Shown one piece after another: positions 4,222 to 48,033 of a stretch of DNA of 48,033 nt. Below the pieces are notes generated by a model. That model ran no database searches and was not told the origin of the DNA. It saw only the letters and a list, made by a program, of their open reading frames with translations. Position 1 is the first letter of the stretch. Every line of letters begins with the position of its first letter. Position numbers and translations under genes: made by a program. The DNA is from an uncultured Woeseia sp. (lineage in GTDB: Bacteria; Pseudomonadota; Gammaproteobacteria; Steroidobacterales; UBA11654): NCBI GenBank assembly GCA_964629335.1, contig CAZVRH010000006.1:1-48033 (forward strand), given 5' to 3'.

Positions 4222-7032
4222 AACTTTTTTTAGATATCTTCCTGTAAAAGAAGATTTAGATTTAGCCACTTCTTCAGGTGCTCCTTCAGCAATTATTTTT
4301 CCTCCTTTATCTCCCCCTTCCGGTCCAAGATCTATAATCCAATCTGCAGTTTTAATAACATCTAAGTTGTGTTCGATGATTATTATTGTATTTCCTTCAT
4401 CTCTGAGCCTCAGCAAGACTTTTATTAATTGATTAACATCATGAAAATGGAGACCAGTTGTCGGCTCATCAAGTAGATATAAAGTGTTTTGATTTGTTCT
4501 CTTTGATAGTTCTTTAGATAATTTAATTCTCTGAGCTTCTCCACCAGAAAGAGTTACTGCATTTTGACCTAACTTTATATACCCAAGCCCTACATCAATC
4601 AGTGTTTCTAATTTATTTTTTAAAACCGGTATATTTTTGAAAAACGAGCAGGCCTCGTCTACTGACATTTCAAGGACTTCATATATATTTCTATCCTTAT
4701 AGAGAATTTCCAATGTTTCTCTATTAAATCGTTTACCTTTACAGACATCACAGGTGACATAAATATCAGCAAGGAAATTCATTTCAACTTTAATTAAACC
4801 ACCACCATGGCATGTTTCGCATCGACCTCCTTTAACATTGAAGCTGAATCTACCTGGTTTATAACCTCTCGATCTAGCTTCTTGAGTTGATGAAAATAGT
4901 TCTCTTACTGTTGTGAATAAACCTGTGTAGGTAGCTGGATTAGAGCGAGGGGTTCTTCCTATTGGGCTTTGACTGATATTGATAATTCTCTTAATATCTT
5001 CATAGTTTGTTATTGTAGTTTCTTCTATTTGATCAGAAATTTTATGTTCCAATTTTGCTCTAAGTAAAGGCTTAAGAGTGCCATTAATCAAGGTTGATTT
5101 ACCTGATCCTGAAACTCCAGTGATACAAGTCAACAGATTAAGAGGGATTTCAACATCCAACGATTTCAAATTATTTTTGCTTGCGTTCTCAATACAAATT
5201 AATTTTGATTTATTTACTGGGGTCCTTTTCTTTGGAATCGGAATTTTTTTTGCACCAGTTAAATATTTTGCAGTTAATGAGGTTTGATTTTTTAGTATCT
5301 TATCTAAGCTGCCTTGACAGACAATTTCTCCGCCTTCACCGCCAGCTCCTGGCCCAAGATCTACAATATGATTTGCTGATCTAATCAACTCTTCATCATG
5401 CTCCACTACAATCACACTATTACCAAGATCTCTTAATTTTGTGAGCGTTTTAATCAGCCTTATATTATCTCTTTGATGCAGGCCAATAGTGGGTTCATCT
5501 AAAACATACATAACTCCCACAAGGCCAGAACCAATTTGGCTTGCAAGTCTAATGCGTTGTGACTCCCCTCCTGAAAGAGTTTCAGCGCTTCTTTCAAGAT
5601 TTAGATAGTTTAATCCTACATTTGATAGGAACTCTAAACGGTCAGCAATCTCTTTGATCACACTCTTTGCGATTTCACCTCGGTTTCCTTTTAGTTTCAA
5701 TTGTTTGAAAAAAGAGAAAATTTCATCAATATTCAGTTGTGTAAGATCAGAAATATTCGAACGATTCACAAAGACATTTCTTGCTGTTTCATTTAATCTT
5801 GATCCTTCACATAATGCGCAAGGTTTTGTGCTCATGAATTTAGACAATGCATCCTTAACTCTTTGTGATTCAGTTTCTTTGTATCGTCTTTTTAAATTAG
5901 GTATCACACCTTCAAAAGGGTGCTTTCTAGAAATTCTTTTACCTCCTCTACCAGGGTAATAAAATTGAATTTTTTCATTGCCGCTTCCATTTAGAAGAAG
6001 ACTTTTGATTTCTTTTTTATAGGATACATAGGGCATTTCAATGTCAAAGTTATAGTGCCTTGATAAACTTCTTATAAGATGAAAATAATAAAAATTTCTT
6101 TTATCCCAACCTCTTATGGCACCTTCTGCAATACTTAATTTTTCATTTTTTATTACTAAATCTGGACTGAAGTAATGCTCAACACCGAGTCCATCACATT
6201 TGGAGCAAGCACCAGCAGGATTATTGAATGAGAAAGTTCTTGGCTCAAGTTCAGGAATAGAGTAACCACATTCAGGACATGCAAACCGGTCAGAAAAAAG
6301 ATAATTTATTTTGGTATCCCCAATAGAAACCACTTTTGCTATTCCATTGGATAAATTAAGCGCCGTTTCAAACGATTCCGAAAGTCTTGATTCAACTTGT
6401 GGCTTAACTGTAAATCTGTCGACTACGACTTCAATGGTGTTATTCTTTTTAGCATCAATAATTGGTATGTCTTCAATATCGAAAATTAATCCATTAATCC
6501 TAAGACGAACAAAACCTCTAGATCTAATATTTTTAATTAATTCTACATGTTCACCTTTACGGTCGTTGACTAAAGGAGATAACAACAATAATTTCTCTCC
6601 CTCCTTGAGTAACATGATTTTATCAACCATTTCACTGATGTTTTGGATGCCTAATGTTCTTTTATGAACAGGGCATTTGGGAATGCCAACTCTCGCAAAA
6701 AGTAATCTCAGGTAATCGTATATTTCTGTGACTGTACCAACAGTGGATCTTGGATTATGAGATGTTGTTTTTTGCTCTATAGAAATAGCAGGAGATAATC
6801 CCTCAATGAGGTCTACATCAGGTTTCTCCATCATAGATAGAAATTGTCTTGCGTAGGCTGATAATGATTCGACATAACGTCTTTGCCCTTCAGCATAGAT
6901 AGTGTCAAAAGCTAAAGATGATTTCCCAGAACCGGAAAGACCTGTCAACACTATCAGTTGATCTCTAGGAAGATCAAGATCGATGTTTTTTAAATTGTGT
7001 GTTCTTGCACCTTTTATTTTTATTTGATCCAT
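4210..7032 (-). CDS. uvrA: Excinuclease ABC subunit A
   Basis: GARTHNLKN, two Walker A motifs ([18 protein letters not shown]), LSGGE twice, Zn-finger Cys pairs. Confidence 0.99.
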
Positions 7033-7101
7033 AACAAAAAGAATTTTCCAAACATTCCATTGTAAATCTTTTTTTGATTAAGAGCTAAAACCAATGCTTT
7101 T

Positions 7102-7110
7102 TGATACAAT
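7102..7110 (+). promoter_or_regulatory. Putative extended -10 promoter element for ssb
   Basis: TGaTACAAT at 7102-7110; a second TACAAT on the minus strand at 7059-7064 could serve uvrA. Confidence 0.45.
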
Positions 7111-7157
7111 TAATTTCTGTTTAAATTTACATTTCGTTTGAGAAAAAAAGGAAAATT

Positions 7158-7592
7158 ATGGCTAGAGGTATCAACAAAGTAATCATAGTTGGCAATTTAG
7201 GAGCAGACCCTGACAGTAGAGCTATGCCGAATGGTAATTCGGTCACCAACATCAGTGTTGCGACATCAGAATCTTGGAATGACAGGACAACAGGGGAGAA
7301 ACAGGAAAAAACAGAATGGCATAGAGTGGTCTTTTTTAATCGATTGGCTGAAATAGCAGCTCAGTATCTAAAAAAAGGTTCACAAGTCTATGTCGAAGGC
7401 AAACTTCAAACGAGGAAATGGGAAGATAAAGAAGGCAATGAGCGATGGACAACTGAAGTTGTTGCTAACCAAATGCAGATGCTGGGTGAAAGGATGAATC
7501 AGGATATGTCTAATGAAAATCCATCAAGTTCCCAATCTGCCACTGATAATAATTTTGTATCCGATGAATTCGACGACGATATACCTTTCTAA
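7158..7592 (+). CDS. ssb: Single-stranded DNA-binding protein
   Basis: [22 protein letters not shown]-terminal DDDIPF; divergent from uvrA. Confidence 0.99.
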
Positions 7593-7620
7593 TAGAACCC
7601 TATATAAACTCTAAAATCAC

Positions 7621-8943
7621 GTGTCTAAAAAGATCTTTATTAAATCTTTTGGTTGTCAGATGAATGAATACGATTCATCAAAGATGTTAGATTTGATGAG
7701 AGAAAAAAGAAACATGGTGAATACTGAAGATGTCTTCAAGGCCGATCTTATTTTACTCAATACTTGCTCAATTAGAGAAAAACCACAAGAGAAAGTCTTT
7801 TCCCAACTAGGGCGATGGAAGGACTATAAAAAAAATAACCCGAATGTCGTTATCGGTGTAGGAGGTTGTGTTGCCACTCAAGAAGGAGCAAATATTTTAA
7901 ATAGAGCGCCGTATGTTGATATTGTTTTTGGGCCACAAACTCTCCATCGTCTGCCAGAAATGTATGATTCAGTTATTCATTCTAGGAAATCTTTAGTTGA
8001 TGTCAGTTTTCCGAAAGCAGAGAAATTCTCACTTCTTCCAAAGACGCTAGATATTAAGCCCTCTGCTTTTGTCTCTATAATGGAAGGGTGCAGCAAGTTT
8101 TGCAGCTTTTGTGTCGTCCCTTATACACGCGGTCTTGAAATTAGTCGCGATCCAGAAGGAATTTTAGATGAAATCAAAGATCTTGCAGATCGAGGCACGA
8201 AAGAGATTAACTTATTAGGTCAGAATGTTAACGCCTATCGAGCTAAAGATAGGAATGGTAAAAAACTGAAATTAGCTGATTTAATTGATCGTGTTAGCTT
8301 AATAGACGGAGTTCAAAGAATTCGTTTCACTACCTCGCATCCCCTTCAGTTTACGGACGATTTGATAAATGCTTTTGAGAATCCAAAATTAGCTAATTAT
8401 TTACATCTTCCTGTGCAAAGTGGATCGAATAAGATACTTCAACTCATGGAAAGGAAGCATAAGGTTGAGCTGTATATTGATCGAATAAATAAATTAAGAT
8501 CATTAAGACCGGATATTAGTGTCGCTTCGGACTTTATTGTGGGCTTTCCTGGCGAAACAGATTCAGATTTTAGGCAAACTCTAGACTTAATTGATACTAT
8601 CGGCTTTGACCAGTCATTTAGTTTTATTTTTAGTCCTAGGCCGAATACACCAGCATCTGAAATGAAAGACACAACAGATTATAGAATAAAGCTAGAGCGC
8701 TTAGATCGATTGCAATCTAGGATTAATAAGAATTCGCAAATCATTAGCGAAGCCATGGTGGGGTCAGACCAAATGATATTAGTCGAAAAAAATTCAAAAA
8801 GAAAAAATAACCAACTATCAGGAAGAACAGAAAATAATCGTTGGGTCAATTTTGATGGGTATGAAAACCTAATAGGTCAAATGGTTCAGCTTAGAATTAC
8901 GGAGGCATTACCTAATTCACTCCGTGGAAGGATTATCAACTAA
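7621..8943 (+). CDS. miaB: tRNA methylthiotransferase MiaB
   Basis: [17 protein letters not shown], radical [12 protein letters not shown]-terminal TRAM region. Confidence 0.97.
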
Positions 8944-8951
8944 GGCAAAAC

Positions 8952-9914
8952 TTGAGCACCACAAAAGAATTTAAAATTGAATCTTTAGAGAACTCTACTC
9001 TAGTAAACTTACTGGGTATATTTGATACGCATATTCGGTCAATTGAAATAGAGCTTGATATTAACATAAAAACTAGAGGTAATATTTTTGTTCTCCGTGG
9101 AGAGGAGTCAAAAATTATTGCTGGTGAGAAGATTATTAAAGATTTATGTTCCGTTGCAAAGAATGAAGACTTAGATCAAGAAAAAGTTCATTTAATTATT
9201 AAGAAATATCTCAATAAAAGTAACAATCAATCTAACGGATCAATAGTAACTGAAACTATAATAAACACGCCCAATAAGGAGATAAAAACTCGCACGGAAA
9301 ATCAATTTAAGTACATAGAGTCAATCAGAAGCAATGATTTATCATTTGGTATTGGTCCAGCTGGTACAGGAAAGACCTACTTGGCTGTTGCTGCAGCAAT
9401 AGAGTCACTGCAACGTGAAGAAGTAAAAAGAATAGTTCTTGTTAGGCCTGCTGTTGAGGCTGGAGAAAATTTAGGCTTTCTGCCAGGAGACTTATCACAA
9501 AAAGTAGATCCTTATCTAAGACCTATGTATGACGCTCTGTATGAGATGCTTGGTTTTGATCAGGTGAACAGCTTAATAGAAAGACGTGCAATAGAATTGG
9601 CACCACTAGCATTCATGAGGGGCAGGTCTCTTAATGAAAGCTTCATTATTTTGGATGAAGCACAAAATACCACTACTGAACAAATGAAAATGTTTTTAAC
9701 AAGAATGGGCTTTGGATCAAAATCTGTTGTGAATGGTGATGTGACTCAAATCGACCTACCTCCTGAAAAGGAATCTGGGCTTAAGCATGCCCTAGATGTC
9801 TTATCTGGAATAGAGAATATATCCATAATTAATTTTGATCATCAAGATATTGTTCGTCATCGTATTGTGCAGAAGATTGTGGAGGCTTACGAAAAATTTA
9901 AAAGCTCAAGATGA
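8952..9914 (+). CDS. ybeZ: PhoH-family ATPase
   Basis: GPAGTGKT, RPAVEAGE.LGFLPG, LDEAQN; miaB-ybeZ-ybeY synteny. Confidence 0.95.
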   Translation: MSTTKEFKIESLENSTLVNLLGIFDTHIRSIEIELDINIKTRGNIFVLRGEESKIIAGEKIIKDLCSVAKNEDLDQEKVHLIIKKYLNKSNNQSNGSIVTETIINTPNKEIKTRTENQFKYIESIRSNDLSFGIGPAGTGKTYLAVAAAIESLQREEVKRIVLVRPAVEAGENLGFLPGDLSQKVDPYLRPMYDALYEMLGFDQVNSLIERRAIELAPLAFMRGRSLNESFIILDEAQNTTTEQMKMFLTRMGFGSKSVVNGDVTQIDLPPEKESGLKHALDVLSGIENISIINFDHQDIVRHRIVQKIVEAYEKFKSSR

Positions 9915-26552: not shown

Positions 26553-27031
26553 TCAAGTTTTGCAGAAAGCACCTTCTCGGCTTGTGTTTTTCTATAATTT
26601 TTCAATTGCTCAGCAATAAACTCATCCTTCAATGCAAGAATTGCTATTGCATAGAGAGCAGCATTAATTGCTCCCGGCTTTCCTATAGCGACTGTTCCAA
26701 CAGGTATACCTGGAGGCATTTGAACAATTGACATCAAGGCATCCATTCCATCTAGCGAACCAGCGATTAGTGGTACACCGATTACAGGAATCGTAGTTTG
26801 TGCAGCCACAACACCCGGTAAAGCAGCAGAGAGTCCAGCTCCAGTGATAAAGACCTGAACCCCATCTTGTTGAGCCTGGATAATAAAAGCCTCTAATTCT
26901 TTCGGTGTTCTGTGAGCCGAAAGAACTCTAGATTCATGAGAAATCTCAAAATCTTTAAGTGTTTTAGCGCAATGTGACATCACATCCCAATCAGATGCAG
27001 AGCCCATGACGATAGCTACTTGAATACCCAT
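26549..27031 (-). CDS. purE: PurE (N5-CAIR mutase / AIR carboxylase)
   Basis: MGS.SD, SAHRTP, PVIGVP, QMP.GIPV.TV. Confidence 0.96.
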   Translation of the reverse strand: MGIQVAIVMGSASDWDVMSHCAKTLKDFEISHESRVLSAHRTPKELEAFIIQAQQDGVQVFITGAGLSAALPGVVAAQTTIPVIGVPLIAGSLDGMDALMSIVQMPPGIPVGTVAIGKPGAINAALYAIAILALKDEFIAEQLKNYRKTQAEKVLSAKLD

Positions 27032-27105
27032 AGCGTAATTCTACAATGTCTTATTTACGGTGTCTAAGTAAGTTAGAATAAAGATATAACAATTATTTGA
27101 GAATT

Positions 27106-28428
27106 ATGAAATTAGACCAACATCACAATAAAGCAGAAAGGGCATTGAAATACGCCAAATCCATTGGAGTGGATGAAGTCAGTTTGAGCTTTGCTGATGG
27201 TAAAGGGTTTTCAGTGACAGCTAGGAATGGATCTATAGAGACGGTTCAGGATTATAAGGATCAAAGTTTCAATATTACGGTTTATCTTGGAAAATCAGTT
27301 GGGGGTGCAAGCTCAAATGATTTATCTGAAGGGGCTATTCAATCAACCATAGATAAGGCGTATAGTCTTTCAAGTCTGACGGCCAGTGATGAATGCAATG
27401 GTCTGGCCGATAAAGAGCGGATGGCGTCAACACCAATAGATCTTGATCTATACAACCCTTGGAACTTAGACATCAACCAAGCCAAGAGTATGGCTATTGA
27501 ATGCGAAGCGTCTGCCTTAGAGTTCGATAAAAAAGTTGTTAACTCAGAAGGGGCAACGGTTGGCAGCTATCTCAACCAATCTCTATATGCAAACTCTCAT
27601 GGTTTTATAGGGGAATCTATATCCACAGGTCACTCAATCAGTTGTACTGCTATTGCAACCGATAACGGCGCCATGGAGATGGATTATGATTACACAAGCG
27701 CTCGGCATCATGAAGATCTTCAAGATCATAAAGAAATAGGCATGCTTGCAGGAAAACAAGCTGTTGAGCATTTAGGATCAAGAAAGATTAAAACAACTAA
27801 AGCGCCAGTGATCTTCTCTCCCAGAGTATCAAGCAGTTTAATTAGCCATCTCATGACAGCTATTAGTGGGTCAAGTCTATATCGAAATGCATCTTTCTTA
27901 GTTAACTCAAAGGGCAAAAAAATTTGCCCTCAATTTATAAACATCAAAGAAGAACCGCATCTGAAAAGAGGTTTTTCTAGTTGTTATTTTGATGCGGAAG
28001 GAGTCGAAACTAAACCAAGACTGATTGTTGAGAATGGAGTACTAAAAGGCTATTTGTTATCGAGTTATTCAGCAAGGCGCTTGGGCCTTGATACTAGTGG
28101 TAACGCCGGAGGTCATCATAATCTGATTGTTGAACCTACAGCCGAAGAGGATATGCAATCTATGATAAAAAGTATGGAGTCTGGATTTCTTGTTACTGGT
28201 TTAATTGGCTATGGAGTGAATGTAGTTAACGGAGATTACTCAAGAGGTGCCAATGGTTTTTGGATTGAGAATGGTGAGATTGCGTTTCCTGTCAGTGAGG
28301 TAACAGTCGCTGGAAATCTGAAAGATATGTTCATGCAAATTATTACGGTGGGAAACGATCCTGAAACAAAGGGCTCTATTTATGCAGGTTCTATTTTAAT
28401 GGACAATTTAATGATAGCCGGAGAATAA
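27106..28428 (+). CDS. pmbA: Metalloprotease partner PmbA/TldE
   Basis: NSEGA, FDAEGV, YSARRLG...GNAGG, GDYSRGA.GFW; TTG 27097 is an alternative start. Confidence 0.96.
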   Translation: MKLDQHHNKAERALKYAKSIGVDEVSLSFADGKGFSVTARNGSIETVQDYKDQSFNITVYLGKSVGGASSNDLSEGAIQSTIDKAYSLSSLTASDECNGLADKERMASTPIDLDLYNPWNLDINQAKSMAIECEASALEFDKKVVNSEGATVGSYLNQSLYANSHGFIGESISTGHSISCTAIATDNGAMEMDYDYTSARHHEDLQDHKEIGMLAGKQAVEHLGSRKIKTTKAPVIFSPRVSSSLISHLMTAISGSSLYRNASFLVNSKGKKICPQFINIKEEPHLKRGFSSCYFDAEGVETKPRLIVENGVLKGYLLSSYSARRLGLDTSGNAGGHHNLIVEPTAEEDMQSMIKSMESGFLVTGLIGYGVNVVNGDYSRGANGFWIENGEIAFPVSEVTVAGNLKDMFMQIITVGNDPETKGSIYAGSILMDNLMIAGE

Positions 28429-29667
28429 ATGAGTATCAGGATAATAAGCTTCATATTTTTGTGTCTGTTTTATACACCCAATCAGGTTTTTGCACATGGA
28501 GCAGTACAAAGAGCATCAGAGCTAAAAGACAGTGAAGTTCGTTTATTTATTGCTGACAATATGGATGGATCGGTTGTGGTTATTGATTTTCCAAACGGTG
28601 AAATTACCCACAGAGTTTCCACTTCTCCTTCAATCATGATTCTGGCCCTGAGTAGAAATAACCAATATATTTATGCCATGCGAGGTAGAGACACGGATGA
28701 AGATCTTACCAGCATTATAAGTACCGGTTTTGATGTGAAGGAAAATCAATTCAGGAAACCGCATGTTATTCGAACAATTAAAACCGATACTCCAGGCGGT
28801 CCTAGGGACAATAAAATGGCAACTGTTGGCGGTTATGACGCCATCTTGACAGAAGGTGAGGCAGAAGTAGTAGTCATAATATCAGATGATATCGATGGTT
28901 ATTCTGAGCTAAAAACAAAACGATACAAGATTGCTGCACCCGATCACTATCATTACTTAGAGGGTGAGGATTATCTGTATATTGGACATCTTTTTAATGG
29001 TTTTGTTCAAGTTTTGAATCGGTCAACTGGTGAGGAGGTAAAAAGGATTCAGGGATGTCCTAGGCTACATGGCATGACAGACGATAAAGTATCCGGGAGA
29101 TTAATTTTCTCATGCGCTAGAGATGTTATTGTGGTCGGAACATTAGGAGAAGAAAAAGCAAAACTCATCACAAGAATCCCCTATCCAGAGAACACAGGGA
29201 GAGGTTGTGCCGCATTTCTAAAAGGAAAGGGACGCGTGCAATGGTGTTACACAGAGGGCGTCATTCCAAGGCTCTACCGAGTGGATTTCGCACAAGAACC
29301 TTATCAATTTACTACCCTATCGGTTGAATCCTCAATTCAACAAAATGCAACCGACGATGGACAATATTTAATGGTGTTGTCCAAACAAGGTGTTTTGTAT
29401 TTATACGATGGTGGGAACGGTAAGCTAATTAAAACAATTAGAGTCTCAGAGCCTTTTCTTGGAGACTGGTTTGAGGATGTGGGTAAAGCTATACTTCCTG
29501 ACATTGCATCGCATCATGGCACGGCATACATCACGCTGACCCATGAAGGAAGAATTGCTGAGATTGATTTAGAGCAAGGGGAGGTTAAAAGATATATTGA
29601 CATAGACGGTTTTCCCACAAGGATAGTGCTTCTTGCTAAAGAAACGTTAGTCCAGAACACCAATTAA
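28429..29667 (+). CDS. Secreted beta-propeller protein, AztD/YncE-like
   Basis: Signal peptide ending VFA|H; repeated beta blades; CPRLHG, PYP, VSEPF, G.P..I resemble AztD as recalled. Confidence 0.7.
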   Translation: MSIRIISFIFLCLFYTPNQVFAHGAVQRASELKDSEVRLFIADNMDGSVVVIDFPNGEITHRVSTSPSIMILALSRNNQYIYAMRGRDTDEDLTSIISTGFDVKENQFRKPHVIRTIKTDTPGGPRDNKMATVGGYDAILTEGEAEVVVIISDDIDGYSELKTKRYKIAAPDHYHYLEGEDYLYIGHLFNGFVQVLNRSTGEEVKRIQGCPRLHGMTDDKVSGRLIFSCARDVIVVGTLGEEKAKLITRIPYPENTGRGCAAFLKGKGRVQWCYTEGVIPRLYRVDFAQEPYQFTTLSVESSIQQNATDDGQYLMVLSKQGVLYLYDGGNGKLIKTIRVSEPFLGDWFEDVGKAILPDIASHHGTAYITLTHEGRIAEIDLEQGEVKRYIDIDGFPTRIVLLAKETLVQNTN

Positions 29668-29679
29668 GAGGAGATTATT

Positions 29680-30090
29680 ATGAGGAAGAACAGAAAAATT
29701 TTATTTTTAGGCGTGTTTGCACTATGTATTGGGACTTTTTTTCAGTCCAATGTATTTGCCCACGCCGATCATGATAAGGACGCTATGATAATAAAAATGG
29801 CTGACATTATGATTAACCTCGAGCATTTTCCTACTGAGGATGAGAAGCAAAAATTACAATCAATCCTGGATTCTGACTCATCGACTGATCAAGAGAAAAT
29901 TATTGCCAATTCGATAATGAATATACAACATTCACCAAATGCGGAAGATCAAGATAAGTTACAGCTCATTATCGACAATACAACTGCAACTTCTACAGTC
30001 AATACACTAGCAAGAATTGTTCAGAGTTTTTCTCACGGGATTTCAAAAACTGATAAAAGAAAATTACAGACCATAAAATTTAAGGGATAA
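29680..30090 (+). CDS. Secreted hypothetical protein with three 35-aa His-containing repeats
   Basis: GAGGAG SD, signal peptide ending VFA|HADH, His49/84/119 and KLQ at 35-aa period. Confidence 0.85.
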   Translation: MRKNRKILFLGVFALCIGTFFQSNVFAHADHDKDAMIIKMADIMINLEHFPTEDEKQKLQSILDSDSSTDQEKIIANSIMNIQHSPNAEDQDKLQLIIDNTTATSTVNTLARIVQSFSHGISKTDKRKLQTIKFKG

Positions 30091-30125
30091 GCCTATAATT
30101 TACTAGACTTATAGTCTCATTTTAA

Positions 30126-31004
30126 TCACTTAAGCTCGGTGATGATGTTATAGGCGCTTTTGTATTTCTTTGCAGTATTATCGATAATTTCTTTCGGTAA
30201 TTCAGGGCCAGGCGCAGTTTTATCCCAGTCAAGTGTTTCCAGATAATCTCTTAAATACTGTTTGTCAAAACTAGGTGGACTGGTTCCTATCGCATAATTC
30301 TCAACTGCCCAAAAGCGAGAAGAATCAGGCGTTAGAACTTCATCAATGAGATACAAGTTATTGTCATGATCCTGTCCAAATTCAAATTTAGTGTCCGCAA
30401 TAATAATGCCACGTTCTTTTGCGTGAGAGACTCCATAGTTATAAATTTCAATGGCTTTATCTCTTACAGTTGCAGCCAGTTCTTTGCCTAAGAGATCTAT
30501 GGTTTTCTGATATGAAATGTTTTCATCATGATCACCAGCTTCAGCTTTAGTTGCAGGGGTATAAATTGGTTCAGGCAATTGTGCAGCCATTTTTAGATTT
30601 TCTTCTAGTCTGATGCCGCAAACCGAACCTGTTTGTTGATAATCTTTCCAACCTGAACCAATTAAATAACCTCTAACAACAGCTTCTATCGGTAGCGGAT
30701 TCAGTCGTTTCACAATCATGCTTCTGTTTTGAAAATAACCGAGTTGATCCAAAGGAACAATGTCTTCAAGATTGAGATCATCAGTAAGGTGATTAATGGC
30801 AATGTGTTTTGTTTTGTTGAACCAGAATTCTGAGAGTTGTGTTAATACTTCTCCTTTACCAGGTATTGGATTAGGTAGCACAACATCGAAAGCAGACATT
30901 CGGTCTGTGGTTACAATAAGTAGATGATCTTCATCAACAGAGTAAATATCTCTGACTTTACCCTGAGCAATGAGTTCTAGATTTTGTAGTATTGGCGCTT
31001 CCAC
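30126..31004 (-). CDS. purC: SAICAR synthase (long Ade1-like type)
   Basis: GKVRDIY, DRMSAFD, VRGYL.GSGW, ADTKFEFG, DEVLTPDSSRFW. Confidence 0.97.
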   Translation of the reverse strand: MEAPILQNLELIAQGKVRDIYSVDEDHLLIVTTDRMSAFDVVLPNPIPGKGEVLTQLSEFWFNKTKHIAINHLTDDLNLEDIVPLDQLGYFQNRSMIVKRLNPLPIEAVVRGYLIGSGWKDYQQTGSVCGIRLEENLKMAAQLPEPIYTPATKAEAGDHDENISYQKTIDLLGKELAATVRDKAIEIYNYGVSHAKERGIIIADTKFEFGQDHDNNLYLIDEVLTPDSSRFWAVENYAIGTSPPSFDKQYLRDYLETLDWDKTAPGPELPKEIIDNTAKKYKSAYNIITELK

Positions 31005-32697: not shown

Positions 32698-33609
32698 TTA
32701 AAAGATCTTTAACATTCTTTTTTGAATATCAAGATCAGCAACTTTCCCAATTCCCGCAAAACTGTTGTCGAGCATATTTTTTGATTTAGAGGTTGCTGGA
32801 ATAATATTAGTCACTGCTGGGTTTGCGATTATGTATTTTAGAAAGAATTGTCCCCAACTGTTGATATCGTAATCTTTGCACCAATGAGGCAGAGTTTGAT
32901 TTTTGAATGAACGAAACAATTTTCCCCTCATAAACGGTCTATTGATAATTGTTGCAACACCGTATTCTTGACAGATTGGCAACAGCCTTTCCTCAGCATC
33001 TCGTTCTCCTATGGAGTAATTAAATTGTGCAAAATCAATGGGTTCTTTTTTTATAATATCTTCCATTTCTTTAAAAGCACTGGATTTATAATGTGTTATT
33101 CCTATATAACTGATTTTCCCAGATTCCTTCATTTGCCTGAGAGTTCTGATTTGTGTTTTCCAATCAAGCAGATTGTGGATTTGAATCAACTCTATCTTGG
33201 TAGTGTTCATTTTTTTGAATGATTCAGTGATCTGTTGCTCACCCTCTGTTTTCCCTTTAATCCATACTTTAGTGGCTAAGAACAATTCATTTCTTCTCGG
33301 ATAATCATCAAGGATGTGACCAATGACTTCTTCGGACTGTCCATACATTGGCGATGTGTCGACTAAGCTGCCTCCATTATTGAGTAAGACTTCAATGATT
33401 GCTTTCCTGATCTTTAGCTCTTCTCTATCTTTTGGATCTATATCAAACACTCTCGATGTTCCTAAGCCAATAATAGGTAGAGATTCACCGCTGGAGGGGA
33501 TGGTCCTTCTTAGCATTTGATTTTGAGCCATGACAGACCTGGATTTTAGACTCGATAATAAAACAGAGGTACTCATCAGTTTCAAAAAATTTCTTTTTGT
33601 TTGTTTCAC
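32698..33609 (-). CDS. Aldo/keto reductase with Tat-like leader
   Basis: IGLGT, DTSPMYG, ATKV, IHNL, IPATSK; N-terminal TKRNFLK. Confidence 0.9.
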
Positions 33610-47609: not shown

Positions 47610-48033
47610 ATGACAAGAAAACAACAGAAAGCCTTAAACAGATCAAAGGCTGTTAAAAGAAGACAAAATATAATTAAAAACGGAGCGAAATCTGCCGCCG
47701 CTGTCGCAGTTGCAAGTGCCGCCATTGCTGCTCCTAATATCAGTGCTCAAGATTCAAGTGCTCAAGCAACCATCGAAGAAATTGTTGTAACATCAAGAAA
47801 GAAATCGGAGAGTCTGCAAGACGTTCCTTTGTCGGTTTCTACACTAACTGAGGAATCGCTTGAACAATCAGGAATCAATACCTTCGAGGACTATCTCTTG
47901 CAATTACCAGGAGTTACCGCAGGAGGATCAGGTCCTGGTCAAAATACAATATACATTCGAGGCCTTGCATCGACTACTCCAAACCTCACAACAGCAGGTG
48001 TTGCTGGCCTAGCACCTAACGTATCTTTCTACC
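47610..48033 (+). CDS. TonB-dependent receptor, N-terminal part (runs off window)
   Basis: Manual translation: signal peptide, TonB box IEEIVVTSRK, ESLQDVPLSVS, LPGV, IYIRG plug motifs. Not in ORF track. Confidence 0.93.
   Translation, partial: MTRKQQKALNRSKAVKRRQNIIKNGAKSAAAVAVASAAIAAPNISAQDSSAQATIEEIVVTSRKKSESLQDVPLSVSTLTEESLEQSGINTFEDYLLQLPGVTAGGSGPGQNTIYIRGLASTTPNLTTAGVAGLAPNVSFY

Follow-up and report, generated by a model that had tools for sequence, protein, structure and literature searches.

A secreted AztD-like propeller and its small triple-histidine neighbour as a candidate zinc-handling pair in an uncultured marine Woeseia

The open ocean is poor in zinc, and the acquisition of this metal by small-genome marine bacteria is poorly known. 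Two adjacent genes on a contig from an uncultured Woeseia sp. (GenBank assembly GCA_964629335.1, contig CAZVRH010000006.1) raise the question of what a pair of secreted proteins, encoded side by side among housekeeping genes, does for such a cell, and in particular whether it handles zinc. The window analysed here is the whole stretch from position 1 to position 48,033 of the forward strand, 48,033 nucleotides in length. Open reading frame 1 (ORF1; 28429..29667, + strand, 412 amino acids) encodes a secreted AztD-like beta-propeller, and ORF2 (29680..30090, + strand, 136 amino acids) encodes a secreted protein built from three helix-loop-helix units of 35 residues each. A previous reading made from the letters of the window (the sequence-only reading) had cast the two as a candidate metal-handling pair, a proposal that the comparative analysis presented here supports in part.

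The reading that we favour, and that we consider moderately probable, is that ORF1 and ORF2 form a periplasmic pair that captures zinc and hands it on. ORF1 would hold Zn(II) in its central pore through two histidines, H173 and H214, joined by H175 and/or the free N-terminal histidine, His23, and would do without the surface hairpin (site 2) by which AztD hands zinc to the binding protein of a transporter of the ATP-binding cassette (ABC) type. ORF2 would receive zinc from the ORF1 pore or deliver zinc to it, taking the place of the missing binding protein of the ZnuA/AztC type, and its flexible H-x-x-H tail may enter the pore by analogy with the histidine loop of AztC. The pair would probably be expressed constitutively in chronically zinc-poor seawater. 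That the two constitute a donor/acceptor pair is what we infer, as are the identity of the metal, the ligand sets, the contact between ORF1 and ORF2, which way the metal is passed and where it ends up. A water-column lineage in which neither ZnuABC nor ZIP has been detected has retained an AztD-like chaperone side by side with a member of an unnamed protein family; were the favoured reading true, AztD-type chaperones would not be confined to ABC-transporter systems, and a family numbering over 500 sequence clusters would gain its first functional hypothesis, backed by two cases from znu operons. It would also become possible to test, on two small soluble proteins, what the N-terminal histidine does and what the pore site of AztD is for, the latter being a question that publications on AztD leave unsettled.

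ORF1 and the AztD family

ORF1 is an AztD homolog and a divergent beta-propeller, the reference being the AztD proteins of the AztABCD systems of Paracoccus denitrificans and Citrobacter koseri (PDB 6CK1, 6CMK and 6N01; PMC6689063). The NCBIfam model for AztD (NF038015) aligns with ORF1 over its full length at an E-value of 2.2e-12 (46.4-46.7 bits), and 33 of 34 ORF1 relatives match it at E<=0.001 (best 6.4e-47). A profile built from 34 ORF1 relatives in turn picks out the crystallised chains of AztD, 6cmk at E 4.6e-23 and 6ck1 at E 7.3e-14. In the AlphaFold2 (AF2) model of ORF1, with a predicted local distance difference test score (pLDDT) of 93, the predicted fold is that of an AztD-type beta-propeller: AztD chains occupy ranks 1-9 of the Foldseek search (template modelling score, TM, 0.73-0.80; E 4.5e-20 to 8.4e-17), and the next-best propeller family follows at E 1.9e-12. 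Pfam gives weak propeller matches only. The comparison with AztD, raised by the sequence-only reading, is thereby borne out by the NCBIfam model, by the profile-to-structure match and by Foldseek; as a secreted propeller of about 400 amino acids, ORF1 has its best match in AztD by both profile and fold, although the two are only 17-20% identical.

The structural report on AztD (PMC6689063) describes two zinc sites in the P. denitrificans protein (PdAztD), a pore site 1 composed of His124, His167 and His218 and a surface site 2 composed of His99, His102, Asp104 and His408. Zinc is there transferred from AztD to AztC from site 2 only, and in a docking model the histidine loop of AztC enters the AztD pore (PMC6689063). 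Residues were mapped by profile alignment, with the ligand identities taken from that report. Two pore histidines are kept. The motif P171-D-H173-Y-H175-Y (28939..28956, + strand) contains H173, invariant among ORF1 relatives and aligned with PdAztD His167, and H175, conserved in at least 90% of them; the motif C210-P-R-L-H214-G (29056..29073, + strand) contains the invariant C210 and H214, the latter aligned with PdAztD His218. The alignment shows H173 and H214 as the putative equivalents of site-1 ligands, to which H175 and/or His23 may be added as further pore ligands. C210 and C229, both invariant, match the conserved cysteine pair that forms a disulfide in AztD, C210 aligning with the cysteine of CTGIHGEA (6ck1) or CPGLHGSA.

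Three features are new relative to AztD, namely the mature N-terminal histidine, the HxH motif formed by H173 and H175, and an E-[H/D] pair. The last is E349-D350 in ORF1 (29473..29478, + strand): E349 is invariant in the 33 sequences of the first alignment (A1) and nearly so in the later alignment (A4), and position 350 is histidine in most relatives and aspartate in ORF1 and in Thermaceae (A1 consensus HEHVDKA vs FEDVGKA in the query clade). Such an interchange of histidine and aspartate is typical of a metal ligand, and E349-D350 is a candidate for one. Several ORF1 homologs also have histidine-rich tails.

The N-terminal histidine depends on the position at which the signal peptide is cleaved. 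In ORF1 the predicted signal peptide covers amino acids 1-22 (28429..28494, + strand), a boundary indicated by the reading of the sequence and by the conserved limit of the alignment; the N-terminus reads MSIRIISFIFLCLFYTPNQVFA and is followed by the predicted mature start HGAVQ. His23, the predicted first mature residue (codon 28495..28497, + strand), is invariant in all 34 aligned relatives with complete N-termini, as far as Thermaceae (A4), and is found in 31 of the 33 sequences of A1, the remaining two being N-terminally truncated gene calls. In ORF2 the predicted signal peptide covers amino acids 1-27 (29680..29760, + strand) and the N-terminus, MRKNRKILFLGVFALCIGTFFQSNVFA, precedes a predicted mature start of HADHDKD. 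Both signal peptides open with basic residues, continue with a hydrophobic core and carry valine at -3 and alanine at -1, and the earlier observation that both end in VFA and are followed by histidine agrees with our own reading of the sequence.

ORF2, its unnamed family and the pairing of the two genes

The AF2 model of mature ORF2 (pLDDT 89.5; predicted TM score, pTM, 0.83) consists of six helices with three histidines in equivalent loops, namely His49 of repeat 1, which lies in the loop that joins the first two helices (29824..29826, + strand), His84 of repeat 2 (29929..29931, + strand) and His119 of repeat 3 (30034..30036, + strand). All three are invariant, together with two of the repeat leucines and D90, in the 57 family sequences of alignment A5, and in a set of 19 sequences H49/H84/H119 and L59/L94/L129 are all invariant (19/19). 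Alignment A5 defines an unnamed triple-histidine family by a signal peptide and three repeats of 35 residues that all have an invariant histidine in the loop and a leucine in the second helix, and ORF2 has every one of these features. A profile search recovered 511 family cluster representatives at E<=0.001 among 1.84 billion representatives; most members are 120-135 amino acids long with a signal peptide, the named entries are all 'hypothetical' and the Atlas clusters are likewise 'hypothetical protein'. Of 400 genomes sampled from the class, 24 contain members, and the close homologs of ORF2 come exclusively from marine metagenomes. ORF2 itself reaches no Pfam or NCBIfam threshold, its only match at E<=1 being DUF4094 (E 0.047); sub-threshold matches to BPSL0761_fam occur in 5 of 12 family members and to PF13801 in one of 14 (21.1 vs 29.2 bits). 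Foldseek against the PDB returned nothing for ORF2 at E<=0.001 (best 0.26), and a wide VIA structure search returned generic helical-repeat matches only, the best at a Z of 6.7, a score too low to be informative for helical proteins. A literature search on AztD with zinc, AztD homologs, N-terminal histidine and BPSL0761 found nothing on the ORF1 subfamily or the ORF2 family.

Zinc enters the picture for ORF2 through two of 26 diverse family loci, from different gammaproteobacterial families, in which the ORF2 homolog (X) is the terminal gene of a znu locus: znuA with zur-znuC-znuB-X in L178, and znuB-znuC with znuA-X in L177. In being small, secreted and linked to znuABC in some lineages, ORF2 resembles the accessory proteins of Zur regulons, ZinT (YodA), ZrgA, PA4063 and Zcp/DUF4198, and the role proposed for it is the predicted one of an accessory zinc binder. 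Like ORF2 as predicted, ZinT furthermore has a flexible N-terminus bearing histidines. ORF2 nevertheless has no sequence match to ZinT, ZrgA, PA4063 or Zcp/DUF4198, and it is predicted to be all-helical with three repeats, whereas the folds of ZinT and ZrgA are beta-rich and that of PA4063 is ferredoxin-like. A second resemblance, in size, secretion and all-helical structure, is to Spy, CpxP and ZraP (Pfam LTXXQ; Metal_resist, PF13801), of which ZraP is associated with zinc, and the '[ST]-x-x-[DE]-K-x-x-L' stretches of ORF2 recall LTxxQ motifs; ORF2 has no match to these families at E<=1, however, and no Spy or CpxP chain is among the structure matches listed for it.

The tail that would reach the ORF1 pore is the predicted mature N-terminus H28-A-D-H31 (29761..29772, + strand), whose four residues have a pLDDT below 50 in the model. 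All 46 full-length close homologs begin their mature part with such an H-x-x-H, and only 13 of 51 sampled members of the wider family outside the clade have a histidine anywhere in the N-terminal tail; the H-x-x-H is missing from two taxonomically near ORF2 relatives that are not linked to ORF1 (in genomes G021 and G017). The H-x-x-H tail is a clade-specific addition rather than a family trait. The N-terminal histidines to which the sequence-only reading drew attention are conserved among ORF1 relatives and among the close homologs of ORF2 but not in the wider ORF2 family.

The pairing of the two genes was surveyed in 61 genomes, those of the source and 60 relatives. ORF1 is present in 14, and in all 14 ORF2 follows it on the same strand at a distance of about 15-70 nucleotides. 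Of the 20 genomes that belong to the family, 14 carry the two genes together, six have neither and none has one alone. Close metagenome contigs agree: among 45 loci in total, ORF2 follows ORF1 in all 40 with at least 450 nucleotides of room, including one (L121) in which it overlaps ORF1 by 3 nucleotides. Across the linked loci the identity of ORF2 drops as low as 34%, against about 62% for ORF1. The sequence-only reading described the pair as inserted between pmbA and purC, and the family genomes agree, because in five of five pair-less genomes examined (of six) pmbA is followed by convergent purC within about 12 bp.

The linkage, which is strict in this one marine clade, does not extend beyond it. 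A profile search found no ORF2 relative beside any of the 22 ORF1-family loci outside the clade with room for one, and no ORF1 match was seen at the ORF2-family loci searched; as all linked cases belong to a single lineage, the linkage may reflect a single ancestral event. This distribution would suit jointly acquired but independent zinc scavengers or buffers that remain neighbours only by descent and make no hand-off, an account that we regard as very unlikely given that tight spacing has been kept while ORF2 diverged, that neither gene is ever single in the 20 family genomes, that the H-x-x-H tail is fixed only where ORF1 adjoins, and that a contig from an RNA library bridges ORF1 and ORF2. 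Small open reading frames beside distant ORF1 relatives (in Thermaceae and at other loci) were also considered as ORF2-like candidates and were rejected, being unrelated on reading and yielding 0/22 in the profile search.

Prediction of a complex of ORF1, ORF2 and zinc gave ipSAE values of 0.02 and 0.00, which is no answer either way. Near-identical pieces of pmbA, ORF1 and ORF2 are found in marine RNA libraries from two studies, and a 299-nucleotide contig from these spans 29488-29783, crossing the junction of ORF1 and ORF2; no RNA-library contig bridges the junction of pmbA and ORF1. The three genes are probably co-transcribed, pmbA being included because it leaves no intergenic space before ORF1.

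Zinc, another metal or none

The comparative gene context favours zinc over copper or nickel. It was assembled from 46 distant ORF1-family loci, 19 from genomes and 27 from metagenomes (the latter after two nearly identical loci and three short contigs, each about 1.1 kb long, had been set aside), some of which may share a source organism. At 17 of the 46 loci the ORF1 relative has ZnuA or another zinc-uptake gene beside it: ZnuA is directly adjacent at 12, and five more have ZIP, ZrgA, DUF1826 with a TonB receptor, or a GTPase of the CobW/COG0523 type. Among the genome loci, ZnuA is adjacent in five (L034, L036, L039, L040, which has two CobW genes besides, and L048), ZIP, an Rrf2 regulator and ZrgA are near the ORF1 relative in L038, a TonB receptor and a CobW-type GTPase in L044, and ZIP, a TonB receptor, DUF1826 and MerC in L051; among the metagenome loci, ZnuA is directly downstream in seven and other zinc-linked genes occur in two (L138 and L170). 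One ORF1 homolog (P0046) is fused to a ZnuA domain. The wider ORF1 family is in this way often found beside ZnuA-family binding proteins and CobW-type GTPases, as is AztD according to PMC6689063. A quick maximum-likelihood tree of 44 rows, to be taken as a lead only, places the query clade (support 100) inside a 24-row group with a Shimodaira-Hasegawa-like approximate likelihood ratio test (SH-aLRT) value of 92; this group also takes in a Paenibacillaceae clade and the clades linked to ZnuA or to other zinc genes.

The query clade itself differs from the AztD systems in having no detected aztABC or znuABC and in having a small helical protein, rather than a cluster A-I partner, as its fixed neighbour. 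PF01297 (ZnuA) was found in none of the 20 family genomes, the source genome included, and ABC-3 (ZnuB) and ZIP were not found in the source genome, which has 13 TonB-receptor matches. A looser scan for Zur half-sites found them in three of 21 upstream regions of the ORF2 family, against 2.5 expected from shuffles, and none near pmbA, ORF1 or ORF2, and a promoter and terminator scan of 26900-30400 gave counts at or below chance.

Besides the restriction of the linkage to one clade, a number of observations weigh against zinc handling by the pair. ORF1, at 46 bits, lies below the curated NF038015 cut-off of 400 bits. Of AztD site 1 only two of three pore histidines are kept, the position of His124 being lysine in ORF1; for site 2 the aligned segment of ORF1 reads TGFDVKENQFRKP and contains no histidine, so that the zinc-transfer hairpin is lost, and the C-terminus (...LVQNTN) is without the AztD C-terminal histidine that belongs to this site. 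No zinc gene is present at 29 of the 46 distant ORF1-family loci. Only two of the 26 ORF2-family loci stand beside znu genes, most being stand-alone with unrelated neighbours, and a tblastn search of 29 loci in a further single family found no ZnuA, ZnuB, Zur or ORF1 relatives. The source genome is 94% complete, and the absence of importers is accordingly to be read as 'not found'. Zur carries paired CxxC motifs, and the genome has no clear zur gene: its only two Fur-family genes (G000:C82:468-827 and G000:C14:6169-6456; loci L056 and L057) encode products neither of which has paired CxxC, so that no zinc-sensing regulator is evident. A Zur-like consensus box has no match in the window at up to three mismatches. 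Carry-over of DNA is possible in the RNA-library contigs. Finally, a gene for cytochrome c or c' lies directly upstream of the ORF1 relative at six of the 46 loci (L033, L045, L137, L140, L154 and L161), and one homolog (P0040) has a C-terminal cytochrome c domain; these upstream genes and the fusion hint that some of the ORF1 family may have a redox function.

Such cytochromes could supply electrons to a redox-active metal, and the same two-protein architecture might then serve copper, in a centre resembling a histidine brace formed by His23 and H173-x-H175, or else nickel, cobalt, manganese or iron, with ORF2 buffering the metal or passing it on. In a histidine brace the amine and imidazole of an N-terminal histidine bind copper together with a second histidine, in a protein with an immunoglobulin-like or cupredoxin-type fold. 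The predicted free N-terminal histidine of ORF1, invariant in 34 of 34 relatives, and the nearby conserved HxH suggest a possible likeness to the copper centres of lytic polysaccharide monooxygenases (LPMOs), CopC and the CuB site of PmoB; ZnuA-family binding proteins, moreover, include carriers of manganese and iron. We nonetheless judge another metal unlikely. The fold of ORF1 is an unrelated propeller whose top matches are to AztD, a zinc protein; CopC/CopD, PCuAC, SCO and multicopper oxidases are absent from all 46 loci, with DUF305 at one; the genes that do accompany the family are the zinc-specific markers ZIP, ZrgA, DUF1826 and GTPases of the CobW type; in the tree, the group with the query clade does not include the cytochrome-linked rows; and two ORF2 relatives stand in operons with a Fur-family regulator and znuCB. 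The analogies that the sequence-only reading drew to the copper or nickel sites of LPMOs, CopC and nickel superoxide dismutase (NiSOD) find no support in fold or gene context.

The remaining point against the zinc-handling pair concerns the occurrence of ORF2-like modules in surface proteins. In genome G017 (L052 2202-3854, - strand, from G017:C22) a three-repeat domain 49% identical to ORF2 over residues 34-131 is part of a protein of more than 550 amino acids with RTX-like repeats of the GGxGxD type, with genes for an ABC exporter and for an outer-membrane protein resembling TolC next to it; in G021 the ORF2 relative is a stand-alone gene. Other ORF2-like domains lie inside proteins of the FG-GAP/dockerin (P0128) or He_PIG/cadherin type (P0124). 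Modules within RTX, FG-GAP and cadherin-type surface proteins fit a general binding module, and with these adhesin-type hosts, the generic helical-repeat neighbours of ORF2 in structure searches (best VIA Z 6.7) and the unrelated neighbours at most ORF2-family loci, it could be argued that no metal is trafficked at all. ORF1 would then be a periplasmic propeller enzyme or binding protein, its fold being common to cd1 nitrite reductase, NirN/NirF, lactonases and YncE (all in the second tier of Foldseek matches, with a weak YncE profile match), and ORF2 an adaptor resembling tetratricopeptide repeats, a chaperone or an inhibitor whose histidines cap helices, as the invariant H-x-P-[ST]-x-x-D pattern, which may be a helix N-cap, would suggest. 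This too appears improbable, in that AztD is clearly the closest protein in sequence and fold with its pore histidines conserved, zinc-uptake genes recur beside both families in unrelated lineages, both families have histidine-rich tails, and the exchange of histidine and aspartate at position 350 is what a metal ligand typically shows.

The zinc capture and hand-off pair can also be put in a stronger form, which we consider doubtful: a ZnuABC-independent periplasmic zinc relay made from two undescribed parts. One would be an AztD offshoot in which the N-terminal histidine made by signal peptidase closes a three-histidine pore site, and the other the first member of a new class of zinc protein, in which a single metal ion is bound by one histidine from each ORF2 repeat, with the H-x-x-H tail reaching the pore. 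Were such a relay to exist, the several hundred unnamed ORF2 relatives, including the modules in RTX-type surface proteins, would be metal-binding domains, and streamlined ocean bacteria would use a zinc route unknown so far.

Setting of the locus and further observations

The source genome comprises 1.48 Mb in 106 contigs and is 93.9% complete, and the records of related genomes carry the labels uncultured Woeseia or Woeseiaceae. Water-column Woeseiaceae have small genomes, according to a paper on planktonic members (PMC12175321), in the text of which the word 'zinc' does not appear. Upstream of ORF1 lies pmbA (tldE; 27097..28428, + strand), identified by its Pfam PmbA_TldD domains, whose TAA stop codon (28426-28428) is followed with zero gap by the ATG of ORF1 at 28429; ORF1 and ORF2 are separated by 12 nucleotides (29668-29679), and Shine-Dalgarno-like sequences precede both, GGAG at 28420-28423 and GAGGAG at 29668-29673. 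This is the arrangement that had been read from the window, with two neighbouring genes, a 12-bp gap and the first abutting pmbA. The convergent gene downstream is purC (SAICAR synthetase, by Pfam), and the Pfam families around the pair, TldD, PurE, PmbA, PurC, Rpe, L13 and S9, mark the neighbours as housekeeping genes. The Pfam scan detected no metal transporter, oxidase or regulator within about 9 kb of the pair, in agreement with the sequence-only reading, and the proportion of G and C in the two genes (0.38-0.43) is the same as in the flanks.

The order tldD-purE-pmbA-ORF1-ORF2 is also found, as in the Woeseiaceae-labelled genomes, on a contig whose record is labelled Dehalococcoidia bacterium (L032); this contig is probably mis-binned. 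The C-terminal F-K-G of ORF2 (window positions 30079-30087) is present in all aligned ORF1-linked homologs and absent from unlinked ones. In a phylum-wide sample, all 40 genomes with an ORF2-family match belong to one family (f286), have sizes of 1.2-3.0 Mb and carry the gene stand-alone; this is the family whose 29 loci, searched with tblastn, showed no znu neighbours.

Among the distant ORF1 relatives, a metagenome-assembled genome of Thermus sp. (L048, 5704-9155) has ZnuA followed by two tandem AztD-like genes, of which the one at 7974-9155 is the ORF1-family member and the other, at 6717-7874, encodes a paralog of 386 amino acids with ...VHGEKVHGEG after its signal peptide. At two further loci the ZnuA gene downstream of the ORF1 relative is followed by a gene (L034 4028-4489 and L036 10289-10654) whose conserved product, some 122 amino acids long, has HEHPGT and HSHEFF motifs and no Pfam match at E<=1e-5. 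Elsewhere in the window, an aldo/keto reductase (32698-33609, - strand) has an N-terminal extension resembling an export signal of the twin-arginine type (KR variant); an exported aldo/keto reductase would be unusual.

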